Source of the DNA: a virus
Lineage: Duplodnaviria; Heunggongvirae; Uroviricota; Caudoviricetes
Length of the DNA: 27,982 nucleotides
IMG/VR virus record: IMGVR_UViG_2850808358_000003
Direction: 5' to 3' (one strand)
The translations under genes were made by a program, and so were the position numbers. Within the stretch, counting starts at the first letter, position 1. Each line of letters begins with the position of its first letter. Below the pieces are notes generated by a model that was not told the origin of the DNA, searched no databases, and worked only from the letters and a program-made list of their open reading frames with translations. This document shows positions 1 to 25,365 of this stretch, one piece after another.

Positions 1-288
1 ATGTCAACCGGATTACGTTTCACACTGGAAGTGGACGGCCTGCCACCGGATGCTTTTGCGGTGGTTTCCTTTCATCTCACCCAGTCACTCTCTTCACTTT
101 TTTCCCTCGACCTTTCTCTGGTCAGTCAGCAGTTTCTTTCCCTTGAATTTGCGCAGGTGCTGGACAAAATGGCCTACCTGACGGTATGGCAGGGCGATGA
201 CGTACAGCGGCGGGTGAAAGGTGTGGTGACCTGGTTTGAACTGGGGGAGAACGACAAAAACCAGATACTGTACAGCATGATGAGGTGT
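1..288 (+). pseudogene. vgrG: vgrG-like (T6SS spike / Rhs-associated Vgr) N-terminal fragment, 3' end removed by IS insertion
   Basis: ORF 1..327 translation MSTGLRFTLEVDGLPPDAFAVVSF... matches recalled VgrG N-termini up to ...NQILYSM; the last ~13 codons lie inside the IS inverted repeat starting at 289. Confidence 0.55.
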
Positions 289-323
289 ACTGGCAATAGC
301 GGACACTACCATTTGTTCTTTTT

Positions 324-1142
324 TTAAGCAGCCATCTGATGATATTTTTCCCTGAAGGCTGCCGGGGAGATATTCCCCAGACGAGAGTGACGACGCTGAC
401 GATTGTAGAAAATCTCAATGTATTCCCGTATTACTGAGATGGCTTCATCCCGGTTATTAAAACGATAGTGGCTCAGGCTCTCATTTTTCAGCGTTCCCCA
501 GAAGCTTTCCATCGGAGCGTTGTCGTAACAGTTACCTTTACGCGACATTGATGTTTTCAGACCAAACTGCTCCTGTATGACCCGGTAATCGTATGCGCAG
601 TACTGTGAACCTCGATCAGAGTGGTGGATTAGCCCGGCAGGTGGGCGCTGGCTCCTGAGCGCCATAAACAGGGCTTTACCTGTCAGCTCTTTTGTCATGC
701 GCTCTCCCATGGCGTAGCCGACAATTTCGCACGTATAAACATCTTTGATGCCAGCGAGGTACAACCATCCCTCCTGTGTGGCAACATACGTCAGGTCCGC
801 CACCCAGACCTGATTTGGTGCTGTAGGAGCGAACGTCTGGTTCAGCAGATTTGGCGCAACTGGCAGATTGTGGTTCGGGTTCGTAGTCGCTCTGAACTTG
901 CGTTTCTGCTTACAGCGTAGCCTTAGCTCCTTACGAAGACGTGCCAGTCGGTCACGACCAACGATGATGCCATTCTCTGCCAGCTCCGTCTGGAGCCGCC
1001 GGGTTCCATATGTTTCGCGAGTGCGGATATGTGCCACCTTAATCTCCAGTTTTAGCCGCTCATCACTTTGTTTTCTGTCTGAGGGTTCATGCTGTACCCG
1101 GTTGTAATAACCGCTCCTGGATACACCAAATACCTGACACAT
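324..1142 (-). CDS. IS3-family transposase OrfB (DDE integrase domain); normally made as OrfAB transframe fusion
   Basis: 272-aa ORF with ...HHSDRGSQY...CYDNAPMESFW... DDE-type motifs; the -1 frame from the OrfA A-run reads into this frame. Confidence 0.9.
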   Translation of the reverse strand: MCQVFGVSRSGYYNRVQHEPSDRKQSDERLKLEIKVAHIRTRETYGTRRLQTELAENGIIVGRDRLARLRKELRLRCKQKRKFRATTNPNHNLPVAPNLLNQTFAPTAPNQVWVADLTYVATQEGWLYLAGIKDVYTCEIVGYAMGERMTKELTGKALFMALRSQRPPAGLIHHSDRGSQYCAYDYRVIQEQFGLKTSMSRKGNCYDNAPMESFWGTLKNESLSHYRFNNRDEAISVIREYIEIFYNRQRRHSRLGNISPAAFREKYHQMAA

Positions 1143-1177
1143 CGCTTCAATGGGAAATTGTTGTCGCCATTGTTCGA

Positions 1178-1480
1178 TTAACGCGTATTTTTCAGCGACT
1201 CCTGTGCAAAATACGCTGTTGCTTTTTTTAATATATCTCGCTCAAGGCGAGCTTCATTTAACGCCTTACGCAGTTGCAGAATTTCAGATTCCAGTTCAGC
1301 CACCGTGCGGGAACCAGGAGTACCGAGCCCTTTTCTGGCGGCGGTAACCCATTGTCCTAAAGTGCCTTCAGGAAGGGATAATCGGGAAGCGCCTTCACTG
1401 ATCGAAAGTTGATTTTCAAGAACCGTTCTGACAGCTTCGGCTTTGAACTCTTTAGAGTAACGTTGGGTTTTTCTGCTCAT
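1178..1480 (-). CDS. IS3-family transposase OrfA (HTH), 100 aa
   Basis: Translation MSRKTQRYSKEFKAEAVRTV... as recalled for IS600 OrfA; A7G slippery run at 1222..1229 (T7 on plus strand) typical of IS3-family -1 frameshifting. Confidence 0.9.
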   Translation of the reverse strand: MSRKTQRYSKEFKAEAVRTVLENQLSISEGASRLSLPEGTLGQWVTAARKGLGTPGSRTVAELESEILQLRKALNEARLERDILKKATAYFAQESLKNTR

Positions 1481-1545
1481 TATTAGCTCCTTCTGATGCC
1501 ATTCTATTTCAGGAAGGAGTGTCCGTTAAACTCAGGCTACCTCAT

Positions 1546-1899
1546 CTACCCCAGATGAGTAATCCGAAGTTCATCCATACCACAGGTCCTGGCTATTCTG
1601 TTGTACTCCTGAACAAGAGCAAATAATTCTGAATTAGCAACCATGAACTCATCGCAAACCCTCTGTATAGCATCACTATTCAGAATAATAACGTCTCTTC
1701 CCGAAAGACGATCAGGAGTACAGAACAAAACTGTCAAACGGCTGAAGGCCTTTGCTCGTGCTGCATTGACTATATCAATACGCTGCCTAAGGATGAAACA
1801 CCCCGACGCCTCATCAATATTCACTCTACCCGCACCATATGAATGATAAATATTTAATGCTGAAAAAACCATTAGACCGTATAACAAATACTCAATCAA
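1546..1899 (-). CDS. hypothetical protein, 117 aa, AT-rich moron-position ORF downstream of phage tRNAs
   Basis: Intact ORF in AT-rich DNA where random ORFs are rare; co-directional with Q and tRNAs; stop codon 2 nt from IS end; no family recognised. Confidence 0.4.
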   Translation of the reverse strand: MIEYLLYGLMVFSALNIYHSYGAGRVNIDEASGCFILRQRIDIVNAARAKAFSRLTVLFCTPDRLSGRDVIILNSDAIQRVCDEFMVANSELFALVQEYNRIARTCGMDELRITHLG

Positions 1900-2186: not shown

Positions 2187-2262
2187 TGGTGGCCCTTGCT
2201 GGATTTGAACCAGCGACCTGGCGATTATGAGTCGCTCGCTCTCACCACTGAGCTAAAGGGCC
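2187..2262 (-). tRNA. tRNA with anticodon CAU, tRNA-Ile2 (lysidine)-like, alternatively elongator Met
   Basis: Minus-strand 76 nt GGCCCTTTAGCTCAGTGGTGAGAGCGAGCGACTCATAATCGCCAGGTCGCTGGTTCAAATCCAGCAAGGGCCACCA; close to recalled E. coli ileX; anticodon loop CTCATAA. Confidence 0.8.
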
Positions 2263-2390: not shown

Positions 2391-2416
2391 GAAAAATCAA
2401 CCTTGTTACCTTGTTA
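2391..2416. repeat. three tandem 8-bp direct repeats TTGTTACC / TTGTTACC / TAGTTACC overlapping the Q-like stop codon
   Basis: Plus strand ccTTGTTACCTTGTTACCTAGTTACC directly read. Confidence 0.5.
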
Positions 2417-3235
2417 CCTAGTTACCTTTTTTAACTGCCGCTCAGCCCATGCTTCTTCAATATCAAACCGGGTCACCAGCGCATCATAAAATTTCTTAAC
2501 TGTTTTTTCCCATGACGCGCGTGTTATCTGGTTTGTCACCTCGCATATAGCATTAAATGCCTCCGTTGATGGTAGTCTTTCATAGCCACGACCACCACAA
2601 CGCTGGCAGTCTCTGATAACAGGCATACCACGTTTTACCGACTCTTCACGATGAATGGCGACACCACGCCCACGGCAATCCTTACAGGCGGTGGAAACCT
2701 CACCCTTTCCGCCACACTCCGGACAGGCAACTTTTACCACCTCCCTGACTTTTTTCCATTCTTCCCAGTAAGACGGATACACACCTTTCGTACACTTTGC
2801 CCATACCGGCGGCTTACCATCCGGATACTGGACCTTGTTTGTAAAAACTATGCTTTCAATAAATTTTTCCCCATAGCAACAAGGGCACTGCTTTTTACTC
2901 GCTGCGCTGCGGGCATAATCCTCAAAAGCGTACGAAGCCATAATGCGCATCACTACCGGTTTTATTTCTGCCGGAAGTTTTCTCAACGCCGCCACACGAT
3001 CGCACCGACTGAGTGCATAATCTGCCAGTAATTCTGTTGCCCGCGCCCTGTCATTCATACTGATGCCCATTTTCCCCAGGAACGCAGAAAAACCCATCTC
3101 AGCCCGATTCTGTGTCATGCCCTGCGCGGCCATCACATCAGTGATACTCAGCGCATCTTTTGACGTTGAGGCCGATGCATCGGTCAGGCCAGGGGATTTT
3201 GGGGAGTAGTATTTCGGTAAATCTTCCAGTTTCAT
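2414..3235 (-). CDS. Q-like late antiterminator candidate with four CxxCxGxG zinc-finger repeats (273-aa ORF; true start may be downstream)
   Basis: Position between rusA and the pR'-like promoter/tRNAs; CPCCYGEK, CPECGGKG, CKDCRGRG, CQRCGGRG motifs; family assignment by position, not verified. Confidence 0.5.
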   Translation of the reverse strand: MKLEDLPKYYSPKSPGLTDASASTSKDALSITDVMAAQGMTQNRAEMGFSAFLGKMGISMNDRARATELLADYALSRCDRVAALRKLPAEIKPVVMRIMASYAFEDYARSAASKKQCPCCYGEKFIESIVFTNKVQYPDGKPPVWAKCTKGVYPSYWEEWKKVREVVKVACPECGGKGEVSTACKDCRGRGVAIHREESVKRGMPVIRDCQRCGGRGYERLPSTEAFNAICEVTNQITRASWEKTVKKFYDALVTRFDIEEAWAERQLKKVTR

Positions 3236-3249
3236 TTTTTGACCTGCTC

Positions 3250-3607
3250 TTAATGCATTATGGGGTAAATCTTCACCCCCAGACGTCCACCAGATACTGG
3301 CTGACCACGAACGATATTGATTTCATCAAACTGCTCATCGTCCATTAACACTCCCGCATGCGTCAGCGCATCCAGCGGTGCTTTCAGGATATTGTCGCAG
3401 GTCGCGACGACGCTTATCCGGTGGCTCTGCAATCACCTTTATCGCCAGCCTTCCGGACAGGCTTAATTTCAGCCGCTGCTGGCGAACAATAAGCGCCACA
3501 GCCCGGCGATAACGCTTTCCCTCCTCCGAGATAAAATATGTGCTGCCACGGCGTCGCCAGTAAGTGTTCACCGTCGGCGGGTAAGGTAAAACCAAATCTA
3601 TGAGCAT
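3250..3607 (-). pseudogene. rusA: rusA Holliday-junction resolvase, frameshifted
   Basis: ORF 3335..3607 carries the RusA N-terminal part (...PPDKRRRDL) and ORF 3250..3432 the C-terminal part (DNILKAPLDALTHAGVLMDDEQF...) in another frame; extra C near 3396..3400. Confidence 0.75.
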
Positions 3608-3619
3608 CAGTCACCTCTT

Positions 3620-4669
3620 TTACCCAAGCACGCCAGTTGCAAAGGCGTGATCAAGAAAACGAAAAATTAAATCAACCTGAGAACCATGCTTTTCTTCGAA
3701 CGCCAGAGGATCCGCATGAAGCTCGTTGTGATGCTCCCGACACAGCGGTAGCGTGAAAATATCGTGAGATTTTGTCCCCATTCCGCCCTGACCATGACCA
3801 ATCAGGTGATGGGGATCGTCGGCTGGCTTACCACAACACGCACACGGCTGTGTCTTCACCCAGCGTTTGTATTTCTCGTTAACCCAGCGGCGACGTTTAG
3901 GTCGTTTCATGAAAGATTCCGGAGACTCAGGATCAACGGCAATGCTGACCACCGTCTTTTCCTGTGGTGGGTTCTGTTGCTGGTGGGCGTGAGGCAGCGG
4001 CGCAAGATTTTTTGTGCGCTGTTTCAGTATGCTGGTGGCGGTCTGCTCTCCCGGTACGATGTCGCTTTCACGGTACATTGAGCGGATTTTTTCCGCACGC
4101 AACCCCAGCGAACGACGTAATACCGCTTCCGGTAGCGCGTCCGCCACCTGATTGCGGACCGCCCACCAGGATAATTCAGCCAGAGATAGTTCACGCTCCT
4201 GCGTACCGCTTATTGCGTGACCGATGACGTCAATCATCCATGCTGACAGGTTTTGATGAGCAAGTTGCTCGAGTGATTCGGATGTCTGGTCACGCAGCTG
4301 GTTGTCGCAGTGCCAGCACAACACCATTGCGCCGGTACCATAACGGTGAATGACGGTTTCGCTGTGATGATAATCGCCGTGTGGCCACTGGCAGGATTTA
4401 ATATGGCGCAACAGCCAGTCAGACAATGCACCAGCACCACCAGCAGCACGAATCACCCGTGCGTTACTGAAAAACGGCAGCAATGTTTTGTCTTCCACCA
4501 GCGGCTGGCGAGCGGCAGGAACGACCCCGGACGGCAGATTACGCATGCTTTTCGGTTCCGGCTCCACCAGTAACCGGGTATTGTGGAATACCGGCATGGA
4601 TTCACGACCGGGCTTAAGGACCACCAGCCCGAGTTCCGGAACCAGAACAGGTCGAAGTAATACCCGCAC
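3620..4669 (-). CDS. ydfU: DUF968-family prophage protein (YdfU-like) with C-terminal HNH-like Cys/His motif
   Basis: 349-aa ORF; C-terminus CACCGKPADDPHHLIGHG...LCREHHNELH; GTG start as predicted; frame remains open ~75 nt upstream. Confidence 0.6.
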   Translation of the reverse strand: MRVLLRPVLVPELGLVVLKPGRESMPVFHNTRLLVEPEPKSMRNLPSGVVPAARQPLVEDKTLLPFFSNARVIRAAGGAGALSDWLLRHIKSCQWPHGDYHHSETVIHRYGTGAMVLCWHCDNQLRDQTSESLEQLAHQNLSAWMIDVIGHAISGTQERELSLAELSWWAVRNQVADALPEAVLRRSLGLRAEKIRSMYRESDIVPGEQTATSILKQRTKNLAPLPHAHQQQNPPQEKTVVSIAVDPESPESFMKRPKRRRWVNEKYKRWVKTQPCACCGKPADDPHHLIGHGQGGMGTKSHDIFTLPLCREHHNELHADPLAFEEKHGSQVDLIFRFLDHAFATGVLG

Positions 4670-4670
4670 G

Positions 4671-4949
4671 TTACCTCCAGATCCGTTGCTGGAATGTGCG
4701 GGACGGACGCGGTGGCTGTTCGGAGTAAGGGAGCCTGACGGAGATTATCCAGTGACGGTAGTCGAGGCTAAGGGCTTTTTTAACCTCGCATCCGCGCCTG
4801 CGGTAACACTGAATGAGCCATTCGGCCTGTTCTTCAGTGCATGAGGGATGCTGGTACCAGTCTGACTTAAATGCGTGAGAATACCGCTCGTGCGTGTGGG
4901 CAAGAACGGTCGAATTATCATGATTGTAATATTTTGCGTTGCGTGCCAT
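4671..4949 (-). CDS. hypothetical protein, 92 aa, immediately upstream of ydfU-like gene
   Basis: ORF MARNAKYYNHDNSTVLAHTHERYSH...; may be the 5' part of a frameshifted longer DUF968 gene. Confidence 0.35.
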   Translation of the reverse strand: MARNAKYYNHDNSTVLAHTHERYSHAFKSDWYQHPSCTEEQAEWLIQCYRRRGCEVKKALSLDYRHWIISVRLPYSEQPPRPSRTFQQRIWR

Positions 4950-5015
4950 CGGTTTTCTCCGGTGGCACGGTGTTACTCAGCGGGAGTTCAGCCCCGCGCA
5001 AGATTGTAGATGAGT

Positions 5016-5267
5016 TTATTCTTCTGAAAAAGCAGAAAAGCCAGCTTTTATTCCGATCTCTTTCAATGCCTGTAATGAAGTGACAAACTCACCGTCGCGC
5101 AAGATAAATCCGTCCGTCACTCGGGCATCCACAAAATTAATTAACGCAGCCCCATTTTTTTGCAAACACACAATGCGGTAATGACTAACAATATTTCCAT
5201 TTTCAACGCACACAGCATAGAGGCCATCTTCACAAAAAATTTTACGCAGTTCTTCGATGTTCATCAT
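5016..5267 (-). CDS. rem: Rem-like small prophage protein, 83 aa
   Basis: Translation MMNIEELRKIFCEDGLYAVCVENG... as recalled for K-12 Qin rem; position between hokD and ydfU as in Qin. Confidence 0.7.
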   Translation of the reverse strand: MMNIEELRKIFCEDGLYAVCVENGNIVSHYRIVCLQKNGAALINFVDARVTDGFILRDGEFVTSLQALKEIGIKAGFSAFSEE

Positions 5268-5389
5268 CAGAATCCTTCCAGATAAATAGCACTCCCCTGT
5301 TCGGGGTCCATCCCTCTTATCCCTGCGCGCTACTTAAGTATTTTTGATTCTATTCCGGCACCATCCAGAACTTCAAATGCGTTGAAAAT

Positions 5390-5414
5390 AAAAACAAAAA
5401 CCCGCCGAAGCGGG
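5390..5414 (-). terminator. intrinsic terminator after relB-relE-hokD operon
   Basis: Minus strand CCCGCTTCGGCGGG hairpin (UUCG loop) followed by TTTTTGTTTTT. Confidence 0.6.
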
Positions 5415-5484
5415 TTAAGTGCGGGTGCGTTGAGGATGCCTGCCACATCAGAGGTGGCGAGGGATTTCTCACTCGCCGGGTCTC

Positions 5485-5640
5485 TTACTCCTCAGGTTCG
5501 TAAGCTGTGAAGACAGCGACCTCCGTCTGGCCGGTTCGGATTCGTACCTCGCAGAGGTCTTTCCTCGTTACCAGTGCCGTCACTATGACGGTTAAACAGA
5601 TGACGATCAGGGCGATTAACATCGCCTTTTGCTGCTTCAT
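5485..5640 (-). CDS. hokD: HokD/RelF type I toxin, 51 aa (not in ORF track, below length cutoff)
   Basis: Manual translation of minus strand: MKQQKAMLIALIVICLTVIVTALVTRKDLCEVRIRTGQTEVAVFTAYEPEE*. Confidence 0.85.
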   Translation of the reverse strand: MKQQKAMLIALIVICLTVIVTALVTRKDLCEVRIRTGQTEVAVFTAYEPEE

Positions 5641-5711
5641 AGCCTGCTTCTCCTGTCAACGCAAAGCAGAAGTGTCACCTTCGGTGCGAAACAGAGATGT
5701 CATGCTTTGGT

Positions 5712-5999
5712 TCAGAGAATGCGTTTGACCGCCTCGCTATATACTTCCGAGCGTTCTCTTTTCCCAACAGAAATCACGAAAACGACAACTTTCTCGTCTA
5801 TAACCTGGTATACAAGGCGATAGCCTGAAGACCGGAGCTTAATCTTGTAACAATCAGGCATACCACGGAGCTTGTTTGCTTCAATCCGGGGTGACTCAAG
5901 TACTTCAACCAGCTTCTTTTTCAACTGTTCACGTACCGTCGAGCCCAGCTTTCGCCATTCCTTTAGTGCCCGCTCGTCAAAATCCAGAAAATACGCCAT
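5712..5999 (-). CDS. relE: RelE mRNA-interferase toxin
   Basis: 95-aa translation matches recalled K-12 RelE essentially end to end. Confidence 0.95.
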   Translation of the reverse strand: MAYFLDFDERALKEWRKLGSTVREQLKKKLVEVLESPRIEANKLRGMPDCYKIKLRSSGYRLVYQVIDEKVVVFVISVGKRERSEVYSEAVKRIL

Positions 6000-6238
6000 C
6001 AGAGTTCATCCAGCGTCACACGTACTGGCTTAGGATTACGAAGCCGTTCTTTCACTATCTCCACAAGTTCAGCATCTTCATCACTCAGGAGTGTCTGTTT
6101 GAACGGCAAGCGTTCATTGTCAGCGATATACTCGAGCATGAGACGAAGCGCTTCAGAAGGAGTTACACCCATTTTTTCAAGCGCGGCGTAAGAACGCGCT
6201 TTAAGTTCATCGTCAATACGCAGGTTAATGCTACCCAT
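5999..6238 (-). CDS. relB: RelB antitoxin
   Basis: 79-aa translation MGSINLRIDDELKARSYA... matches recalled RelB; stop overlaps relE start. Confidence 0.95.
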   Translation of the reverse strand: MGSINLRIDDELKARSYAALEKMGVTPSEALRLMLEYIADNERLPFKQTLLSDEDAELVEIVKERLRNPKPVRVTLDEL

Positions 6239-6239
6239 G

Positions 6240-6300
6240 TCTTACACCTCTTGTAATTACAAATGTCATTACAAGTATCGCACTACAACATGCTTAGGGC
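6240..6300 (-). promoter_or_regulatory. relBE promoter/operator region with palindromic TTGTAAT repeats
   Basis: TTGTAATTACAAATGTCATTACAA at 6251..6274, 13 bp upstream of relB start. Confidence 0.5.
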
Positions 6301-6453
6301 AAGTCACGAAGGAAGTCAGAAAGTAGTCGTAAGAACGGTGATCACTGTCCGCTTTGTGCCAGGAGCAGCCATTGCTAAGTCCATCCTGTTGAGGTAGCCT
6401 GAGTTTAACGGACACTCCTTCCTGAAATAGAATGGCATCAGAAGGAGCTAATA

Positions 6454-6756
6454 ATGAGCAGAAAAACCCAACGTTACTCTAAAGAGTTCAAAGCCGAAGC
6501 TGTCAGAACGGTTCCTGAAAATCAACTTTCGATCAGTGAAGGCGCTTCCCGATTATCCCTTCCTGAAGGCACTTTAGGACAATGGGTTACCGCCGCCAGA
6601 AAAGGGCTCGGTACTCCTGGTTCCCGCACGGTGGCTGAACTGGAATCTGAAATTCTGCGACTGCGTAAGGCGTTAAATGAAGCTCGCCTTGAGCGAGATA
6701 TATTAAAAAAAGCAACAGCGTATTTTGCACAGGAGTCGCTGAAAAATACGCGTTAA
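6454..6756 (+). CDS. IS3-family transposase OrfA (copy 2; L28P and Q68R relative to copy 1)
   Basis: Same 100-aa protein as 1178..1480 with two substitutions. Confidence 0.9.
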   Translation: MSRKTQRYSKEFKAEAVRTVPENQLSISEGASRLSLPEGTLGQWVTAARKGLGTPGSRTVAELESEILRLRKALNEARLERDILKKATAYFAQESLKNTR

Positions 6757-6791
6757 TCGAACAATGGCGACAACAATTTCCCATTGAAGCG

Positions 6792-7211
6792 ATGTGTCAG
6801 GTATTTGGTGTATCCAGGAGCGGTTATTACAACCGGGTACAGCATGAACCCTCAGACAGAAAACAAAGTGATGAGCGGCTAAAACTGGAGATTAAGGTGG
6901 CACATATCCGCACTCGCGAAACATATGGAACCCGGCGGCTCCAGACGGAGCTGGCAGAGAATGGCATCATCGTTGGTCGTGACCGACTGGCACGTCTTCG
7001 TAAGGAGCTAAGGCTACGCTGTAAGCAGAAACGCAAGTTCAGAGCGACTACGAACCCGAACCACAATCTGCCAGTTGCGCCAAATCTGCTGAACCAGACG
7101 TTCGCTCCTACAGCACCAAATCAGGTCTGGGTGGCGGACCTGACGTATGTTGCCACACAGGAGGGATGGTTGTACCTCGCTGGCATCAAAGATGTTTATA
7201 CGTGCGAAATT
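6792..7211 (+). pseudogene. IS3-family transposase OrfB, 3'-truncated at codon ~140
   Basis: Identical to copy 1 OrfB through ...GIKDVYTCEI, then diverges at the junction. Confidence 0.85.
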
Positions 7212-8494
7212 TTTCCCGCGAGGTTGAAGCGGCATGGAAAGAGTTTGCCGAGGATGACTGCTGCTGCATTGACGTTGAGCGGAAACGCACGTTTACCATG
7301 ATGATTCGGGAAGGTGTGGCCATGCACGCCTTTAACGGTGAACTGTTCGTTCAGGCCACCTGGGATACCAGTCCCTCGCGACTGTTCCGGACACAGTTCC
7401 GGATGGTCAGCCCGAAGCGCATCAGCAACCCGAACAATACCGGCGACAGCCGGAACTGCCGTGCCGGTGTGCAGATTAATGACAGCGGTGCGGCGTTGGG
7501 ATATTACGTCAGCGAGGACGGCTATCCTGGCTGGATGCCGCAGAAATGGACATGGATACCCCGTGAGTTACCCGGCGGGCGCGCCTCGTTCATTCACGTT
7601 TTTGAACCCGTGGAGGACGGGCAGACCCGCGGTGCAAATGTGTTTTACAGCGTGATGGAGCAGATGAAGATGCTCGACACACTGCAGAACACGCAGCTGC
7701 AGAGCGCCATTGTGAAGGCGATGTATGTCGCCACCATTGAGAGTGAGCTGGATACGCAGTCAGCGATGGATTTTATTCTGGGCGCGAACAGTAAGGAGCA
7801 GCGGGACAAGCTGACCGGCTGGATTGGTGAAATTGCCGCGTATTACGCCGCAGCACCGGTCCGTCTGGGAGGCGCAAAAGTGCCGCACCTGATGCCGGGG
7901 GACTCACTGAACCTGCAGACGGCTCAGGACACGGATAACGGCTACTCCGTGTTTGAGCAGTCACTGTTGCGGTATATCGCTGCCGGGCTGGGTGTCTCGT
8001 ATGAGCAGCTTTCCCGGAATTACGCCCAGATGAGCTACTCCACGGCACGGGCCAGTGCGAACGAGTCGTGGGCGTACTTTATGGGGCGGCGAAAATTCGT
8101 CGCATCCCGTCAGGCGAGCCAGATGTTTCTGTGCTGGCTGGAAGAGGCCATCGTTCGCCGCGTGGTGACGTTACCTTCAAAAGCGCGTTTCAGCTTTCAG
8201 GAAGCCCGCAGCGCCTGGGGGAACTGTGACTGGATAGGCTCCGGTCGTATGGCCATCGATGGTCTGAAAGAAGTACAGGAAGCGGTGATGCTGATAGAAG
8301 CCGGACTGAGTACCTACGAGAAAGAGTGCGCAAAACGCGGTGACGACTATCAGGAAATTTTTGCCCAGCAGGTCCGTGAAACGATGGAGCGCCGTGCAGC
8401 CGGTCTTAAACCGCCCGCCTGGGCGGCTGCGGCATTTGAATCCGGACTGCGACAATCAACAGAGGAGGAGAAGAGTGACAGCAGAGCTGCGTAA
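7212..8494 (+). pseudogene. B: lambda portal protein B, lacking roughly the first 107 codons
   Basis: ORF 7166..8494 from residue ~16 onward matches recalled lambda gpB C-terminal ~426 aa; first 15 residues are IS-derived. Confidence 0.9.
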
Positions 8495-9794
8495 TCTCCC
8501 GCATATTGCCAGCATGGCTTTTAATGAGCCGCTGATGCTTGAACCCGCCTATGCGCGGGTTTTCTTTTGTGCGCTTGCAGGCCAGCTTGGGATCAGCCGC
8601 CTGACGGATGCGGTGTCCGGTGACAGCCTGACTGCCGGAGAGGCACCCGCGACGCTGGCGTTATCCGTTAATGATGACGGACCACGACAGGCCCGCAGTT
8701 ATCAGGTCATGAACGGCATCGCCGTGCTGCCGGTTTCCGGCACGCTGGTCAGCCGGACGCGGGCGCTGCAGCCGTATTCGGGGATGACCGGTTACAACGG
8801 CATTATCGCCCGTCTGCAACAGGCTGCCAGCGACCCGATGGTGGACGGCATTCTGCTGGATATGGACACGCCCGGCGGAATGGTGGCAGGGGCATTTGAC
8901 TGCGCTGACATCATCGCCCGTGTGCGTGACATAAAGCCGGTATGGGCGCTGGCCAATGACATGAACTGCAGCGCAGGTCAGCTGCTTGCCAGTGCCGCCT
9001 CCCGGCGTCTGGTCACGCAGACCGCCCGGACAGGCTCCATCGGCGTCATGATGGCTCACAGTAATTACGGTGCTGCGCTGGAGAAACAGGGCGTGGAAAT
9101 CACGCTGATTTACAGCGGCAGCCATAAGGTGGATGGCAACCCCTACAGCCATCTACCGGATGATGTCCGGGAAACACTGCAGTCCCGGATGGATGCAACC
9201 CGCCGGATGTTTGCACAGAAGGTGTCGGCATATACCGGCCTGTCCGTGCAGGCTGTGCTGGATACCGAGGCTGCAGTGTACAGCGGTCAGGAGGCCATTG
9301 ATGCCGGACTGGCTGATGAACTTGTTAACAGTACCGATGCGATCACCGTCATGCGTGATGCACTGGATGCACGTAAATCCCGTCTCTCAGGAGGGCGAAT
9401 GACCAAAGAGACTCAATCAACAACTGTTTCAGCCACTGCTTCGCAGGCTGACGTTACTGGCGTGGTGCAAGCGACGGAGGGCGAGAACGCCAGCGCTGCG
9501 CAGCCGGACGTGAACGCGCAGATCACCGCAGCGGTTGCGGCAGAAAACAGTCGCATTATGGGGATCCTCAACTGTGAGGAGGCTCACGGACGCGAAGAAC
9601 AGGCACGCGTGCTGGCCGAAACCCCTGGTATGACCGTGGAAACGGCCCGCCGCATTCTGGCAGCTGCACCACAGAGTGCACAGGCGCGCAGTGACACTGC
9701 GCTGGATCGTCTGATGCAGGGGGCACCGGCACCGCTGGCTGCAGGTAACCCGGCATCTGATGCCGTTAACGATTTGCTGAACACACCAGTGTAA
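8475..9794 (+). CDS. C: lambda C, prohead protease / minor capsid protein (S49 family); GTG start
   Basis: Translation from GTG at 8475 (VTAELRNLPHIASMAFNEPLMLEP...) matches recalled lambda gpC; start overlaps B stop. Confidence 0.9.
   Translation: MTAELRNLPHIASMAFNEPLMLEPAYARVFFCALAGQLGISRLTDAVSGDSLTAGEAPATLALSVNDDGPRQARSYQVMNGIAVLPVSGTLVSRTRALQPYSGMTGYNGIIARLQQAASDPMVDGILLDMDTPGGMVAGAFDCADIIARVRDIKPVWALANDMNCSAGQLLASAASRRLVTQTARTGSIGVMMAHSNYGAALEKQGVEITLIYSGSHKVDGNPYSHLPDDVRETLQSRMDATRRMFAQKVSAYTGLSVQAVLDTEAAVYSGQEAIDAGLADELVNSTDAITVMRDALDARKSRLSGGRMTKETQSTTVSATASQADVTGVVQATEGENASAAQPDVNAQITAAVAAENSRIMGILNCEEAHGREEQARVLAETPGMTVETARRILAAAPQSAQARSDTALDRLMQGAPAPLAAGNPASDAVNDLLNTPV
9189..9794 (+). 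CDS. Nu3: Nu3 scaffolding protein (in-frame internal start within C)
   Basis: In-frame ATG at 9189 (MDATRRMFAQ...) 606 nt before the C stop, as recalled for lambda Nu3. Confidence 0.6.
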   Translation: MDATRRMFAQKVSAYTGLSVQAVLDTEAAVYSGQEAIDAGLADELVNSTDAITVMRDALDARKSRLSGGRMTKETQSTTVSATASQADVTGVVQATEGENASAAQPDVNAQITAAVAAENSRIMGILNCEEAHGREEQARVLAETPGMTVETARRILAAAPQSAQARSDTALDRLMQGAPAPLAAGNPASDAVNDLLNTPV

Positions 9795-9803
9795 GGGATG
9801 TTT

Positions 9804-10136
9804 ATGACGAGCAAAGAAACCTTTACCCATTACCAGCCGCTGGGCAACAGTGACCCGGCTCATACCGCAACCGCGCCCGGCGGATTGAGTGCGAAAGCGC
9901 CTGCAATGACCCCGCTGATGCCGGACACCTCCACCCGTAAGCTGGTTGCGTGGGATGGCACCACCGACGGTGCTGCCGTTGGCATTCTTGCGGTTGCTGC
10001 TGACCAGACCAGCACCACGCTGACGTTCTACAAGTCCGGCACGTTCCGTTATGAGGATGTGCTCTGGCCGGAGGCTGCTAGCGATGAGACGAAAAAACGG
10101 ACCGCGTTTGCCGGAACGGCAATCAGCATCCTTTAA
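9804..10136 (+). CDS. D: lambda D head decoration protein
   Basis: [27 protein letters not shown]... matches lambda gpD. Confidence 0.9.
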
Positions 10137-10153
10137 CCTTACCCTTCATCACT

Positions 10154-10178
10154 AAAGGCCGCCTGTGCGGCTTTTTTT
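10154..10178 (+). terminator. D-E intergenic GC hairpin with T7 tract (terminator-like / mRNA structure)
   Basis: GCCGC-CTGT-GCGGC followed by TTTTTTT. Confidence 0.4.
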
Positions 10179-10191
10179 ACGGGATTTTTTT

Positions 10192-11217
10192 ATGTCGATG
10201 TACACAACCGCCCAGCTGCTGGCGGCAAATGAGCAGAAATTTAAGTTTGATCCGCTGTTTCTGCGTCTCTTTTTCCGTGAGAGCTATCCCTTCACCACGG
10301 AGAAAGTCTATCTCTCACAAATTCCGGGACTGGTAAACATGGCGCTGTACGTTTCGCCGATTGTTTCCGGTGAGGTTATCCGTTCCCGTGGCGGATCCAC
10401 CTCTGAATTTACACCGGGATATGTCAAGCCCAAGCATGAGGTGAATCCGCAGATGACCCTGCGTCGCCTGCCGGATGAAGATCCGCAGAATCTGGCGGAC
10501 CCGGCTTACCGCCGCCGTCGCATCATCCTGCAGAACATGCGAGACGAAGAGCTGGCCATTGCTCAGGTCGAAGAGATGCAGGCCGTTTCTGCCGTGCTCA
10601 AGGGCAAATACACCATGACCGGTGAAGCCTTCGATCCGGTTGAGGTGGATATGGGCCGCAGTGCGGCGAACAACATCACGCAGTCCGGCGGCACGGAGTG
10701 GAGCAAGCGTGACAAGTCCACGTATGACCCGACCGACGATATCGAAGCCTACGCGCTGAACGCCAGCGGCGTGGTGAATATCATCGTGTTTGACCCGAAA
10801 GGCTGGGCGCTGTTCCGTTCCTTCAAAGCCGTCAGGGAGAAGCTGGATACCCGTCGCGGCTCTCATTCCGAACTGGAGACAGCGGTAAAAGACCTGGGCA
10901 AAGCGGTGTCTTATAAGGGAATGTATGGCGATGTGGCCATCGTCGTGTATTCCGGACAGTACGTGGAAAACGGCGTCAAAAAGAACTTCCTGCCGGACAA
11001 CACGATGGTGCTGGGTAACACTCATGCACGCGGTCTGCGCTCCTATGGCTGTATTCAGGATGCGGATGCATTGAGTGAGGGTATTAATGCGTCTCCCCGT
11101 TATCCGAAAAACTGGAAGACATCCGGCGATCCGGCGCGAGAGTTCACCATGATTCAGTCAGCACCGCTGATGCTGCTGGCTGATCCTGATGAGTTCGTGG
11201 CCGTTCAACTGGCGTAA
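10192..11217 (+). CDS. E: lambda E major capsid protein
   Basis: MSMYTTAQLLAANEQKFKFDPLFLRLFF... matches lambda gpE. Confidence 0.95.
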   Translation: MSMYTTAQLLAANEQKFKFDPLFLRLFFRESYPFTTEKVYLSQIPGLVNMALYVSPIVSGEVIRSRGGSTSEFTPGYVKPKHEVNPQMTLRRLPDEDPQNLADPAYRRRRIILQNMRDEELAIAQVEEMQAVSAVLKGKYTMTGEAFDPVEVDMGRSAANNITQSGGTEWSKRDKSTYDPTDDIEAYALNASGVVNIIVFDPKGWALFRSFKAVREKLDTRRGSHSELETAVKDLGKAVSYKGMYGDVAIVVYSGQYVENGVKKNFLPDNTMVLGNTHARGLRSYGCIQDADALSEGINASPRYPKNWKTSGDPAREFTMIQSAPLMLLADPDEFVAVQLA

Positions 11218-11258
11218 TCATGGCCCTTCGGGGCCATTTTCTCTCTGTGGAGGAGTCC

Positions 11259-11654
11259 ATGACGAAAGATGAACTGATTGCCCGTCTTCAGGTGCTGGGT
11301 GAGCAACTGAACCGTGATGTCAGCCTGACGGGGACGAAAGAAGAACTGGCGCTCCGTGTGGCAGAGCTGGAAGAGGAGCTTGATGACACGGATGACGCAG
11401 CCGGTCAGGACACGTCTGTCAGCCCGGAAAATGCGCTGACCGGACATAAAAATGAGGTGGTATCAGAACAGACGGATACCGTGACTGATACGGCTGCTCT
11501 GGTCACGGTCGTGGCACTGGTGACGCTGCATACCGATGCACTTCACGCCACGCGGGATGAACCTGTGGCATTTGTGCTGCCGGGAACGGCGTTTCGTGTC
11601 TCTGCCGGTGTGGCAGCCGAAATGACAGAACGTGGCCTGGCCAGAATGCAATAA
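11259..11654 (+). CDS. FI: lambda FI DNA-packaging protein
   Basis: MTKDELIARLQVLGEQLNRDVSLTGTKEELALRVAEL... matches lambda gpFI. Confidence 0.85.
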   Translation: MTKDELIARLQVLGEQLNRDVSLTGTKEELALRVAELEEELDDTDDAAGQDTSVSPENALTGHKNEVVSEQTDTVTDTAALVTVVALVTLHTDALHATRDEPVAFVLPGTAFRVSAGVAAEMTERGLARMQ

Positions 11655-11665
11655 CGGGAGGCGCT

Positions 11666-12019
11666 GTGGCTGATTTCGATAACCTGTTCGATGCTGCCAT
11701 TGCCCGCGCCGATGAAACGATACGCGGGTACATGGGAACGTCAGCCACCATGACATCCGGTGAGCAGTCCGGCGCAGTAATACGTGGTGTTTTTGATGAC
11801 CCTGAAAATATCAGCTATGCCGGACAGGGCGTGCGCGTTGAAGGCTCCAGCCCGTCCCTGTTTGTCCGGACTGATGATGTGCGGCAACTGCGGCGTGGAG
11901 ACACGCTGACCATCGGTGAGGAAAACTTCTGGATAGACCGGGTTTCGCCGGATGATGGTGGAAGCTGTCATCTCTGGCTTGGGCGGGGCGTACCGCCTGC
12001 CGTTAACCGTCGCCGCTGA
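11666..12019 (+). CDS. FII: lambda FII head-tail joining protein; GTG start
   Basis: MADFDNLFDAAIARADETIRGYMG... matches lambda gpFII. Confidence 0.9.
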   Translation: MADFDNLFDAAIARADETIRGYMGTSATMTSGEQSGAVIRGVFDDPENISYAGQGVRVEGSSPSLFVRTDDVRQLRRGDTLTIGEENFWIDRVSPDDGGSCHLWLGRGVPPAVNRRR

Positions 12020-12030
12020 AAGGGGGATGT

Positions 12031-12579
12031 ATGGCCATAAAAGGTCTTGAGCAGGCCGTTGAAAACCTCAGCCGTATCAGCAAAACGGCGGTGCCTGGTG
12101 CCGCCGCAATGGCCATTAACCGCGTTGCTTCATCCGCGATATCGCAGTCGGCGTCACAGGTTGCCCGTGAGACAAAGGTACGCCGGAAACTGGTAAAGGA
12201 AAGGGCCAGGCTGAAAAGGGCCACGGTAAAAAATCCGCAGGCCAGAATCAAAGTTAACCGGGGGGATTTGCCCGTAATCAGGCTGGTTAACGCGCGGATT
12301 GTCCTGTCCCGACGCAGGCGTCGTAAAAAGGGGCAGCGTTCAGCCCTGAAAGGTGGCGGCAGCGTGCTTGTGGTGGGAAACCGTCGTATTCCCGGCGCGT
12401 TTATTCAGCAACTGAAAAATGGCCGGTGGCATGTCATGCAGCGTGTGGCCGGGAAAAACCGTTACCCCATTGATGTGGTGAAAATCCCGATGGCGGTGCC
12501 GCTGACCACGGCGTTTAAACAGAATATTGAGCGGATACGGCGTGAACGTCTTCCGAAAGCGCTGGACTATGCGCTGTAG
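12031..12579 (+). CDS. Z: lambda Z tail completion protein, ends at in-frame TAG 10 codons before the ancestral stop
   Basis: MAIKGLEQAVENLSRISKTAVPG... matches lambda gpZ; frame continues HQLRMVIKR to TGA at 12607..12609 overlapping the U start. Confidence 0.85.
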   Translation: MAIKGLEQAVENLSRISKTAVPGAAAMAINRVASSAISQSASQVARETKVRRKLVKERARLKRATVKNPQARIKVNRGDLPVIRLVNARIVLSRRRRRKKGQRSALKGGGSVLVVGNRRIPGAFIQQLKNGRWHVMQRVAGKNRYPIDVVKIPMAVPLTTAFKQNIERIRRERLPKALDYAL

Positions 12580-12605
12580 CATCAACTGAGGATGGTAATA
12601 AAGCG

Positions 12606-13001
12606 ATGAAACATACTGAACTCCGTGCAGCCGTACTGGATGCACTGGAGAAGCATGACACCGGGGCGACGTTTTTTGATGGTCGCCCCGCTGTTTTTGA
12701 TGAGGCGGATTTTCCGGCAGTTGCCGTTTATCTCACCGGCGCTGAATACACGGGCGAAGAGCTGGACAGCGATACCTGGCAGGCGGAGCTGCATATCGAA
12801 GTTTTCCTGCCTGCTCAGGTGTCGGATTCAGAGCTGGATGCGTGGATGGAGTCCCGGATTTATCCGGTGATGAGTGATATCCCGGCACTGTCAGATTTGA
12901 TCACCAGTATGGTGGCCAGCGGCTATGACTACCGGCGCGACGATGATGCGGGCCTGTGGAGTTCAGCCGATCTGACTTATGTCATTACCTATGAAATGTG
13001 A
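12606..13001 (+). CDS. U: lambda U tail terminator protein
   Basis: [26 protein letters not shown]... matches lambda gpU. Confidence 0.9.
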
Positions 13002-13008
13002 GGACGAT

Positions 13009-13749
13009 ATGCCAACACCAAATCCTCTGGCACCGGTGAAAGGGGCCGGGACCACCCTGTGGGTTTATAACGGGAGCGGCGACCCTTATGCAAACCCGCT
13101 TTCAGACAATGACTGGTCGCGTCTGGCAAAGGTTAAAGACCTGACGCCCGGCGAACTGACCGCTGAGTCCTATGACGACAGTTATCTCGATGATGAAGAT
13201 GCGGACTGGGCCGCGACCGGACAGGGGCAGAAATCTGCCGGAGATACCAGCTTCACGCTGGCGTGGATGCCCGGAGAGCAGGGGCAGCAGGCGCTGCTGG
13301 CGTGGTTTAATGAAGGTGATACCCGTGCCTATAAAATCCGCTTCCCGAACGGCACGGTCGATGTGTTCCGCGGCTGGGTCAGCAGTATCGGTAAGGCGGT
13401 GACGGCGAAGGAAGTGATCACCCGCACGGTGAAAGTCACCAACGTGGGACGTCCGTCGATGGCAGAAGATCGCAGCACGGTAACAGCGGCAACCGGCATG
13501 ACCGTGACGCCTGCCAGCACCTCGGTGGTGAAAGGACAGAGCACTACGCTGACCGTGGCATTCCAGCCGGAAGGCGCAACCGACAAGAGCTTCCGTGCGG
13601 TGTCTGCGGATAAAACAAAAGCCACCGTGTCGGTCAGTGGTATGACCATCACCGTGAAAGGTGTTGCTGCAGGCAAGGTCAACATTCCGGTCGTATCCGG
13701 TAATGGTGAACTTGCTGCGGTTGCAGAAATCAACGTCACCGCCCGTTAA
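13009..13749 (+). CDS. V: lambda V major tail protein with C-terminal Ig-like domain
   Basis: [33 protein letters not shown]... matches lambda gpV. Confidence 0.9.
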
Positions 13750-13764
13750 TCCGGAGAGTCAGCG

Positions 13765-14188
13765 ATGTTCCTGAAAACCGAATCATTTGAACATAACGGT
13801 GTGACCGTCACGCTTTCTGAACTGTTAGCCCTGCAGCGTATTGAGCATCTTGCCTGGTTGAAAAGAGCAGGAAAAAAAGGCTGAATCCAGTGGCAACCTG
13901 CAGGTGTCTGTAGAGGAGCTTATCAGAGGCGGGGCGTTTCTGGTGGCGATGTCTCTGTGGCATAACCATCCACAGAAGACAAAGCTGCCGTCCATGAATG
14001 AAGCCATTACGCAGATTGAGCAGGAAGTGCTTACCACCTGGCCCACGGAGGCAATTGCTCAGGCTGAAAACGTGGTGTTACGTCTGTCCGGAATGTCTGA
14101 GTTTGTGGTGAATGATGCTCCTGAACAGACAGAGGACGCCGGGCCTGCAGAGCCTGTTTCTGCGGGAAAGTGTTCGACGGTGAGCTGA
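13765..14188 (+). pseudogene. G: lambda G tail assembly chaperone, disrupted by +1 frameshift in an A7 run
   Basis: Frame from ATG 13765 stops at 13882..13884 after MFLKTESFEHNGVTVTLSEL...; rest of G (ORF 13904..14188) is in the +1 frame; A7 at 13872..13878. Confidence 0.8.
14164..14170 (+). promoter_or_regulatory. programmed -1 ribosomal frameshift slippery heptamer G GGA AAG (G to G-T)
   Basis: GGGAAAG near the end of G, in phase with the G frame; T frame is the -1 frame. Confidence 0.75.
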
Positions 14189-14604
14189 GTTTTGCCCTGA
14201 AACTGGCGCGTGAGATGGGGCGACCCGACTGGCGTGCCATGCTTGCCGGGATGTCATCCACGGAGTATGCCGACTGGCACCGCTTTTACAGTACCCATTA
14301 TTTTCATGATGTTCTGCTGGATATGCACTTTTCCGGGCTGACATACACCGTCCTCAGCCTGTTTTTCAGCGATCCGGATATGCATCCGCTGGATTTCAGT
14401 CTGCTTAACCGGCGCGAGGCTGACGAAGAGCCTGAAGATGATGTGCTGATGCAGAAAGCGGCAGGGCTTGCCGGAGGCGTCCGCTTTGGCCCGGACGGGA
14501 ATGAAGTTATCCGCGCTTCCCCGGATGTGGCGGATATGACGGAGGATGACGTAATGCTGATGACAGTATCAGAAGGGATCGCAGGAGGAGTCCGGTATGG
14601 CTGA
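14170..14604 (+). CDS. T: T segment of the G-T tail assembly chaperone (no independent start; made by frameshifting)
   Basis: ORF 14170..14604 translation matches lambda gpT; stop overlaps H start. Confidence 0.75.
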   Translation: MFDGELSFALKLAREMGRPDWRAMLAGMSSTEYADWHRFYSTHYFHDVLLDMHFSGLTYTVLSLFFSDPDMHPLDFSLLNRREADEEPEDDVLMQKAAGLAGGVRFGPDGNEVIRASPDVADMTEDDVMLMTVSEGIAGGVRYG

Positions 14605-14837
14605 ACCGGTAGGCGATCTGGTCGTTGATTTGAGTCTGGATGCGGCCAGATTTGACGAGCAGATGGCCAGAGTCAGGCGTCATTTTTCCGGTACGGAAAG
14701 TGATGCGAAAAAAACAGCGGCAGTCGTTGAACAGTCGCTGAGCCGACAGGCGCTGGCTGCACAGAAAGCGGGGATTTCCGTCGGGCAGTATAAAGCCGCC
14801 ATGCGTATGCTGCCTGCGCAGTTCACCGACGTGGCCA
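14597..14837 (+). pseudogene. H: lambda H tape-measure protein, first ~80 codons only
   Basis: MAEPVGDLVVDLSLDAARFDEQMARVRRHF...AQFTDVAT matches lambda gpH N-terminus, then diverges into I sequence out of frame. Confidence 0.85.
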
Positions 14838-15440
14838 CGCATCTGCCTTTACGGGGATTTACAACGATTTGGCCGCCGCATCGACCTTCGTGTAAAAACG
14901 GGGGCTGAAGCCATCCGGGCGCTGTCCACACAGGTCCCGGCATTTCGTCAGAAACTGAGTGACGGCTGGTATCAGGTACGGATTGCCGGGCGTGATGCAG
15001 GTGAAACCGAATTGTCTGCCCGTCTTAATGAGCCGCTGGCAAATGGTGCCGTGATCCACATCGTGCCGCGTCTGGCGGGAGCTAAAAGCGGCGGTGTGCT
15101 TCAGGTGGTGCTGGGGGCGGCGCTGATTGCGGTGGCATGGTGGAACCCTGTGGGCTGGCTGGGTGCCGCGGCTGTATCGGGCATGTATGCGGCAGGGGCC
15201 AGTATGATCCTGGGCGGAGTGGCGCAGATGCTGGCACCGAAAGCCAGGACGCCCACGGCAGCAAGTACAGATAACGGCAAACAGAACACCTATTTCTCCT
15301 CACTGGATAACATGGTTGCCCAGGGCAATGTTCTGCCTGTTCTGTACGGTGAAATGCGCGTGGGGTCACGCGTGGTTTCTCAGGAGATCAGCACGGCAGA
15401 TGAAGGGGATGGTGGTCAGGTTGTGGTGATTGGTCGTTGA
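14838..15440 (+). pseudogene. I: lambda I tail assembly protein, 5'-truncated (from about codon 15) and joined to H'
   Basis: From ~14838 the frame reads RICLYGDLQRFGRRIDLRVKTGAEAIRAL... matching recalled lambda gpI; no start codon until TTG at 15012. Confidence 0.85.
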
Positions 15441-15458
15441 TGCAAAATGTTTTATGTG

Positions 15459-15479
15459 AAACCGCCTCCGGGCGGTTTT
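15459..15479 (+). terminator. I-J intergenic hairpin (terminator-like)
   Basis: AAACCGCC-TCCG-GGCGGTTTT. Confidence 0.35.
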
Positions 15480-15497
15480 GTCGTTTATGGAGCGTGA

Positions 15498-20336
<4,839 letters not shown>

Positions 20337-24000: not shown

Positions 24001-24234
24001 GCAGGTATGTCTACGGGGTGGTTAGCTAATACCAGTACAGATGGTAATCATAGCCACTCACTGTCCGGCACAGCAGCATCTGCAGGTGCACACGCGCATA
24101 CTGTCGGTATTGGTGCTCATACGCACTCCGTTGCGATTGGTTCACATGGACACACCATCACCGTTAACGCTGCTGGTAACGCGGAAAACACCGTCAAAAA
24201 CATCGCATTTAACTATATTGTGAGGCTTGCATAA
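21067..24234 (+). CDS. stf: side tail fibre protein Stf
   Basis: [26 protein letters not shown]... matches recalled lambda Stf N-terminus; C-terminal His-rich HxH motifs and ...[18 protein letters not shown] end. Confidence 0.9.
21400..22450 (+). repeat. low-complexity Ala/Ser/Thr-rich imperfect tandem repeats inside stf
   Basis: Recurring ...[14 protein letters not shown]... units; region is open in several frames on both strands. Confidence 0.7.
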
Positions 24235-24809
24235 TGGCATTCAGAATGAGTGAACAACCACGGACCATAAAAATTTATAATCTGCTGGCCGGAACTAATG
24301 AATTTATTGGTGAAGGTGATGCATATATTCCGCCTCATACAGGTCTGCCAGCAAACAGTACCGATATTGCACCGCCAGATATTCCGGCTGGCTTCGTGGC
24401 TGTTTTCAACAGTGATGAGTCATCGTGGCATCTCGTTGAAGATCATCGGGGTAAAACAGTTTATGACGTGGCGTCAGGGGACGCGTTATTTATTTCTGAA
24501 CTCGGTCCGTTACCGGAAAATGTTACCTGGTTATCGCCGGAAGGGGAGTTTCAGAAGTGGAACGGCACAGCCTGGGTGAAGGATACGGAAGCAGAAAAAC
24601 TGTTCCGGATCCGGGAGGCGGAAGAAACAAAAAACAACCTGATGCAGGTAGCCAGTGAGCATATTGCGCCGCTTCAGGATGCTGCAGATCTGGAAATTGC
24701 AACGGAGGAAGAAATCTCGTTGCTGGAAGCATGGAAAAAGTATCGGGTATTGCTGAACCGTGTTGATACGTCAACTGCACAGGATATTGAATGGCCAGCA
24801 CTGCCGTAG
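24234..24809 (+). CDS. tfa: tail fibre assembly protein Tfa
   Basis: [37 protein letters not shown]... matches lambda Tfa; start overlaps stf stop. Confidence 0.9.
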
Positions 24810-24889: not shown

Positions 24890-25365
24890 ACACCGAGATC
24901 TGTTCTTCATTTAACACAGGTGGTCGACCAAAACGTTTCCCTGCGCCGCGGGCTCTTACTATCCGGAATGAGTGCGTTCAAGTAAAAGGTCTCGTTCAAA
25001 TTCAGCGACTGCTGAAATTACTTGCATCATCATTTTTCCTGTTGGACTGGTCAGGTCAATGCCCCCAATGCTAAGCAATGCACTCTGATACCTGTTTCGG
25101 TCAGTTGTTCCACTGTTTTCCTGATATCCATTGCATTACAACCAAGGCGATCCAGTTTTGTCACAATCAATTGATCACCACATTTCAGGCGAGCAAGCAA
25201 CCGGTTAAAACCAGGACGCTCACTGGTTGCTGCTGAGCCGCTAATGTGTTCTTCGATTATTTGCTGAGGTTTGATTTTAAAACCTGCACTTTCGATTTCC
25301 CGGCGTTGATTTTCGGTGGTCTGATCCAGCGTTGATATCCGACAGTAAGCAAAAATTCGAGACAT
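24890..25365 (-). pseudogene. pin: Pin/Gin/Hin-family serine DNA invertase remnant: intact catalytic N-terminus (25051..25365), frameshifted and lacking the C-terminal HTH
   Basis: [28 protein letters not shown]... stops at 104 aa; recombinase sequence continues in other frames ([34 protein letters not shown], then RARGAGKRFGRPPVLNEEQ) and ends near 24890. Confidence 0.8.

Follow-up and report, generated by a model that had tools for sequence, protein, structure and literature searches.

How did a lambda-like prophage come to carry a tape measure gene (H) that breaks off after some 80 codons and runs straight into the tail gene I, and does the joint belong to the chromosome or only to its assembly? 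The window in which this question arises, by which we mean the whole stretch of DNA analysed here (27,982 nucleotides, IMG/VR record IMGVR_UViG_2850808358_000003), had been interpreted in a preliminary description as carrying an internal deletion that joins the 5' end of H to I. Alignments with phage lambda (J02459) bear this interpretation out, with I resuming at about codon 16, and we regard it as highly probable that the loss of tail genes, on a scale of 4 kb, is a genuine inherited chromosomal deletion in a lambda-like prophage that was already defective.

Extent of the deletion

Comparison of the whole window with lambda by BLAST yielded two collinear blocks, and the sequence past 14838 is indeed I: window 7211-14844 follows lambda 3154-10789 at 96.3% identity, and window 14838-18038 follows lambda 14818-18042 at 92.3%, with no match anywhere in the window to lambda 10790-14817. 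In lambda coordinates the absent segment amounts to 4,035 bp (lambda ~10787-14821), in agreement with the earlier estimate of roughly 4 kb, and it comprises H codons 82-853, M, L, K minus its last 58 nt and I codons 1-15. On either side of the joint the order of the lambda genes G-T-H-M-L-K-I-J is kept and the sequence is near-identical to that of lambda, with protein identities of 100% for H 1-81, 99% for T and 97% for J 1-846, but the window differs in that only 81 codons of H remain, M, L and K have gone and codons 1-15 of I are missing. The I gene of the window shares only 76% identity with lambda I overall and is of the mEp460/cdtI-type allele (96% DNA identity).

The features at the joint are as follows:

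14170 to 14604, plus strand: T (tail assembly chaperone frame), intact and directly upstream of H'; matches lambda T 1-144 at 99.3% identity (tblastn) and is annotated as Pfam Phage_tail_T
14597 to 14841, plus strand: H' remnant, tape-measure codons 1-81 plus 2 nt; protein identical to lambda H 1-81
14597 to 14908, plus strand: chimeric 103-aa ORF, H 1-81 followed by 22 out-of-frame codons from I DNA (HLPLRGFTTIWPPHRPSCKNGG, then stop); from the ORF list and tblastn
14836 to 14841, no strand assigned: deletion joint CACGCA, one copy here and one per breakpoint in undeleted relatives; from three-way alignments with L014 and L004-L007
14838 to 14895, plus strand: last 58 nt of K, codons about 181-199 plus stop; from tblastn with lambda K
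14838 to 15440, plus strand: I' remnant, codon R16 to stop; Pfam Lambda_tail_I, E = 7e-24
15501 to 18038, plus strand: J' codons 1-846, interrupted by IS4; matches lambda J 1-846 at 97.4% identity (tblastn)

Protein-level searches agree with this picture. No tblastn match to lambda M or L was obtained in the window, nor any match to lambda H past about residue 81-90, as the preliminary description had supposed when it reported no tape-measure body, M, L or K; for K this has to be amended, since its last 58 nt are kept. The only match to lambda K covers residues 177-199, at window 14824-14892, in the part of K that overlaps I (in the lambda reference, K spans 14276-14875 and I 14773-15444), and it is because of this overlap that a 3' stub of K survives. 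Lambda I is matched from residue 10/16 to residue 223.

The remnants of H and I

The ORF in the H frame begins at 14597 (MAEPVGDL...AQFTDVAT) with 81 residues identical to lambda H, in line with the roughly 80 codons noticed earlier, and then continues for 22 non-H codons after base 14841 up to a stop codon at 14906-14908. Gene I lies in another frame than H', with (14838-14597) mod 3 = 1, which the preliminary description had also recognised; the point of resumption, which it gave as about residue 15, is R16 by tblastn (RICLYGDLQRFGRRIDLRV...), the I frame from 14838 reading RICLYGDLQRFGRRIDLRVKTGAEAIRAL... up to ...GGQVVVIGR and a stop.

While both remnants are recognisably homologous to their full-length counterparts, neither forms an intact full-length ORF, and they are thus pseudogene remnants. 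The Pfam TMP_2 profile matches H' over residues 54-83 only (36.6 bits against a cut-off of 30.2; profile positions 2-31 of 208), and an ORF of 103 aa that has the N-terminal homology of gpH but falls far short of its full length (~850 aa with a C-terminal tape-measure domain) is a gene fragment and no member protein of the lambda-type tape measure family. For I', the translation of 14838-15437 matches PF06805 (Lambda_tail_I) over profile positions 4-83 of 83 with E = 7e-24, and homology to gpI is therefore clear, yet an intact ORF with its own start (which lies inside K) is missing: codons 1-15 and the upstream K sequence are gone, and with them the start codon and ribosome-binding site. Open from 14742, the I frame offers as its earliest ATG, GTG or TTG a TTG at 15012 that would give 142 aa. 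This 142-aa ORF also occurs in Shigella boydii ATCC 9905 and another draft, within an intact HK97-type tail module, and is thus not diagnostic of the deletion. The exact 846-aa J' protein is found on the source contig only.

Short homology at the joint

We inspected the joint by three-way alignment of the window, the H side and the I side, using lambda and the related loci L014 and L004-L007. The H side reads GTGGCCACGCA|GCT. The I side reads ATGGCGCGCA|TCT in lambda, with 4 bp in common (CGCA, 14838-14841), and ATGGCACGCA|TCT in the closest relatives, with 6 bp in common (CACGCA, window 14836-14841). The aligned rows are:

H side: ...TTCACCGACGTGGCCACGCA|GCTTGCAGG
I side of lambda: ...GTCACCGGGCATGGCGCGCA|TCTGCCTTT
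I side of all closer relatives inspected (L004-L007, L014): ...GGCATGGCACGCA|TCTGCCTTT
Window: ...GACGTGGCCACGCATCTGCCTTT

CACGCA is thus present at both breakpoints in L014 and L004-L007 and once in the window, which is the pattern of a microhomology deletion, and it sits in a 22-nt patch with 13 matching positions, TCACCG included. An earlier suggestion of microhomology at a GCCCGCA-like stretch was right about the presence of short homology and slightly off in its letters, the shared motif being CACGCA when the relatives are used. The three-way alignments revealed neither filler DNA nor an IS end at the joint, and an Rfam scan returned nothing there. When 200,000 random deletion joints were simulated for each of two related loci, at least 6 bp of microhomology arose with p ~0.002 (~0.2%) and at least 4 bp with p ~0.02 (~2%); the short homology at the joint exceeds chance.

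The joint in independent data

Window 4597-24908 is 100% identical to positions 668256-688567 of CP026877.1 (GCA_002950035.1). A 201-bp junction query found no spanning record in 5,426 complete E. coli genomes (megablast), and exact-pattern scans for a junction 41-mer, and then for a 22-mer, found neither in species-representative (GTDB) genomes, metagenome contigs or viral contigs, the species-representative set being one that merges Shigella into E. coli, so that a negative there says little.

Carriers of the joint were found through two lineage-specific alleles, a Z of 182 aa and a V of 246 aa. One Logan short-read assembly, L019 (SRR6049580, 7,866 bp), crosses the identical joint and differs from window 7211-14893 by zero base substitutions and one 1-nt indel; another, L023 (DRR015988, 2,209 bp), reads ...GTGGCCACGCATCTGCCTTTACGG... 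and extends 53 nt past the joint. The junction 22-mer and its flanks are present in both. Both contigs end or begin varying at 14894, the first site at which several copies of I differ, as is expected of de Bruijn assemblies. It follows that the deletion is genuine and is carried by at least two further data sets, which may represent different isolates or one strain re-sequenced; a contiguous H, which would have spoken against a deletion, finds no support in these assemblies. The fusion ORF of L019 measures 121 aa.

An intact module, on the other hand, is common: 3,386 complete E. coli genomes cover at least 80% of a 7.2-kb query that crosses the joint, and in all 20 of the matches listed the query aligns in two pieces whose span exceeds its own length by 3.95-4.05 kb, with annotations of the tape measure, L and K (C40 peptidase) inside the matched region. 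L004 and L005 were among the loci inspected.

The prophage and its other lesions

The element is a lambdoid prophage at the Qin (ydfJ) locus, a placement that follows from tfaQ-pinQ-ydfK-ydfJ on its right flank and ydfU, rem, hokD, relE and relB, together with a Q-type antiterminator and rusA, in its left part. The E. coli K-12 Qin prophage is likewise a defective lambdoid remnant at the ydfJ locus, with the same ydfJ, ydfK, pinQ and tfaQ on the right and ydfU, rem, hokD, relE and relB on the left. K-12 Qin has lost its head and tail genes, whereas the copy in the window keeps most of them (B' to T and I' to tfa) and has lesions of its own. With lambdoid genes at the ydfJ locus, Nu1, A, W, the N-terminus of B, the H body, M, L and K absent and J interrupted, it is a cryptic prophage. 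By the names of the source proteins, its host lineage is Shigella boydii: for both the Z (182 aa) and the V (246 aa) alleles the sources name this species only.

Two insertion sequences interrupt the structural genes:

6390 to 7211, plus strand: partial IS600, 822 bp, adjoining the portal gene B at lambda 3154 (BLAST)
18039 to 19462, plus strand: IS4 in J after codon 846, with the 13-bp target duplication CAGCAGACTGGAG (18026-18038 and 19463-19475)

At the partial IS600 the prophage lacks Nu1, A and W as well as the first ~104 codons of B, and the same B breakpoint is found in sister loci. The IS4 transposase is split into three ORFs by two 1-nt deletions (at 18270, C4 to C3, and at 18558, where an A is lost). 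Z (12031-12579) carries a nonsense change and stops 10 codons early, at 182 aa vs 192 aa in lambda, and this allele marks the lineage. G (13765-14190) is split into ORFs of 39 aa and 81 aa by an extra A at 13861 (GAAAAG vs GAAAG); the short-read contigs L019, L022 and L023 of the same sublineage are without it and have an intact 140-aa G, and the extra A probably reflects a long-read error at this homopolymer in CP026877.1, if it is not a mutation private to that genome.

Several further observations concern the architecture of the locus. A complete IS600 at ~283-1546 (minus strand) and the partial IS600 at 6390-7211 (plus strand) are inverted relative to each other and flank a Qin-type block (Q antiterminator, rusA, ydfU, rem, hokD, relE, relB) encoded on the minus strand, in inverted orientation to the structural genes. 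This arrangement suggests that IS600 mediated an inversion and that the lysis genes, Nu1, A, W and the 5' end of B were lost along with it. The IS600 at the window's left edge cuts off an N-terminal fragment of Phage_GPD (baseplate hub; 1-327, plus strand). The late-regulatory region has two tRNA genes (2013-2086 and 2190-2262, minus strand) immediately downstream of the Q-type antiterminator (2414-3235, minus strand). Towards the right end, a full-length match to Rfam IS009 (220.9 bits, 24577-24775, plus strand) sits inside tfa (24234-24809), and a pinQ-type invertase (25051-25365, minus strand) is truncated to 104 aa, the window being about 134 bp shorter at this point than the E. coli reference loci, against which it aligns in two pieces. 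Complete E. coli genomes such as 21AR0173 share the J::IS4 joint, which there belongs to another prophage remnant, one that adjoins sitABCD and has its own deletion from the lysis genes to J.

Sister loci in Shigella boydii

Sister copies of the prophage share the left flank of the window. Seven loci (L011 and L013-L018) have the same Z allele and are 99.8% identical to window 7211-14841, and four of these (L011 and L013-L015) are also 100% identical over I (window 14836-15467); a match of both flanks to a single sister lineage speaks for an intramolecular deletion. The same four loci carry another lesion, an in-frame H-L fusion in which lambda 12186 is joined to 13638 with the loss of 1.46 kb, so that H to about residue 549 continues into L from about residue 70 (L014 7375-9522). 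The resulting 715-aa protein (EAA4815990.1 etc.) is annotated as 'phage minor tail protein L', and its sources name only S. boydii. In L016-L018 the match to lambda ends at 12186 too, and these contigs stop ~90-130 nt later, so that they show the breakpoint on the H side only.

The sister deletion resembles that of the window in its prophage lineage, with the same B::IS600 breakpoint and Z nonsense allele, in starting within H and in a short joint overlap (5 nt in BLAST coordinates), but it differs in its endpoints, in being in frame and in keeping K and I. The H region has been deleted twice independently in this S. boydii prophage lineage, as H-L in most strains and as H-I here, each time with the 5' end of H and G/T kept.

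Over 15468-18038, J is a mosaic when compared with L011 and L014, with about 3-4% divergence in patches as against 0-0.2% in I and leftward; this points to homologous exchange with another lambdoid prophage.

Alternative origins of the joint

The joint could in principle be an artefact, if the long-read CP026877.1 assembly had collapsed or mis-joined the tail region of a chromosome with an intact H-M-L-K-I. That assembly does have single-base indels that resemble long-read errors, namely the extra A in G and the two 1-nt deletions in IS4, and the exact 103-aa fusion protein is recorded on this one contig only. Nevertheless, L019 and L023 share the joint, the unique sequence on its H side and at least 53 nt of I, and assemblers collapse long repeats, not 6-bp repeats; these two contigs essentially refute an artefact, to which we assign next to no probability. 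A deletion made by a neighbouring IS600 or IS4, or by a site-specific recombinase, might be thought of in a prophage so rich in insertion sequences (IS600 at ~283-1546 and 6390-7211, IS4 at 18039-19462) and with the remnant of the pinQ invertase nearby. However, the joint is flanked left and right by plain phage coding sequence, 3.2 kb separate it from the nearest IS, and no IS end, inverted repeat or recombinase site is present at or near 14836-14841; as the joint is without an IS or recombination site, we reject an origin of this kind as extremely improbable.

Whether a genuine deletion arose in one step or in two is a much closer matter. If the ancestor already carried the 1.46-kb H-L fusion, a second deletion from H codon 81 to I codon 16 would have erased it, and the length removed may then be 2,598 bp, not 4,035 bp. 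We give this two-step history a chance only a little short of even: L011, L013, L014 and L015 combine the Z allele and the 99.8% identical left flank with the H-L joint, and the B::IS600 breakpoint common to all shows common descent, but the sublineage of the window has a distinct V allele (246 aa vs 243 aa) and may have branched off before the H-L deletion, and the H-I deletion erases any trace either way. A crossover between two lambdoid prophages or phages, one contributing the H side and the other the I-J side, with short homology at the point of joining, is by comparison quite improbable. In its favour are the divergence of the mosaic J from the sister loci (about 3-4% from 15468 on, as against 0.2% in the left flank), the presence of several lambdoid prophages with near-identical I genes in Shigella and E. 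coli genomes, and the fact that L009 and L010 have the same C-terminal protein of I in another prophage, one of HK97 type. Against it, the 630 bp to the right of the joint (14836-15467, all of I) are 100% identical to the very sister lineage that has the 99.8% left flank, and the right end is still the tfaQ-pinQ-ydfK-ydfJ of the Qin locus; an intramolecular deletion is more parsimonious, and the mosaicism of J possibly reflects a separate homologous exchange.

Mechanism of the deletion

In the most probable reading, an intramolecular deletion had as its endpoints the two copies of CACGCA, at H codon 80-82 and I codon 15-17, and removed one copy together with all the intervening DNA. The two copies are separated by 4,035 bp in an intact lambda-type tail module, and by 2,598 bp if the H-L fusion was already there. 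The most likely route is short-homology recombination that is independent of RecA, which would proceed by replication slippage or by template switching in a post-replication gap. We infer independence from RecA from the 6-bp length of the repeat, as 6 bp is far below the homology length used by RecA. Short-homology deletions of this type were reportedly described in lacI by Albertini et al. in 1982. The deletion in the window resembles the spontaneous short-homology deletions of E. coli in the length (a few bp) and spacing (a few kb) of its direct repeats, in the single copy retained and in the absence of filler, and differs in that its RecA-independence and replicative origin are deduced from the joint. 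In E. coli, deletions that arise without RecA between short direct repeats separated by a few kb are well established as a class (PMC7145654).

A caveat applies to the pathway: slippage, template switching and end-joining at a break are not distinguishable by sequence. Moreover, at 6 bp the repeat is near the lower limit for such events and the region contains many other pairs of hexamers, and the repeat therefore explains the position of the joint, not its cause.

Consequences and significance

The product of the deletion has no function. With H cut to 81 residues and a frameshifted end, M, L and K gone and I without a start codon, no tail can be built. We infer that the deletion most likely reflects neutral decay of a cryptic prophage, given that the terminase and part of the portal gene had already been lost and that it is one of several independent lesions (B::IS600, J::IS4, the Z nonsense change and the truncated pinQ). 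That the two deletions in the H region instead reflect selection, whether against the expression of tail-tip genes or for an N-terminal fragment of H, appears very improbable to us.

In annotations of the locus, the ORFs named 'tape measure' (103 aa) and 'tail assembly protein I' (142 aa) are to be flagged as fragments of pseudogenes, and the whole element as a prophage that is defective and unable to build tails; the import of the finding past annotation is small. The lesion belongs to the classic class of short-homology deletions and is nothing new in kind. The joint also provides a clean lineage marker for a subclade of Shigella boydii. Overall, the locus is a textbook case of how short-homology deletion adds to the decay of prophages beside the insertion of IS elements.
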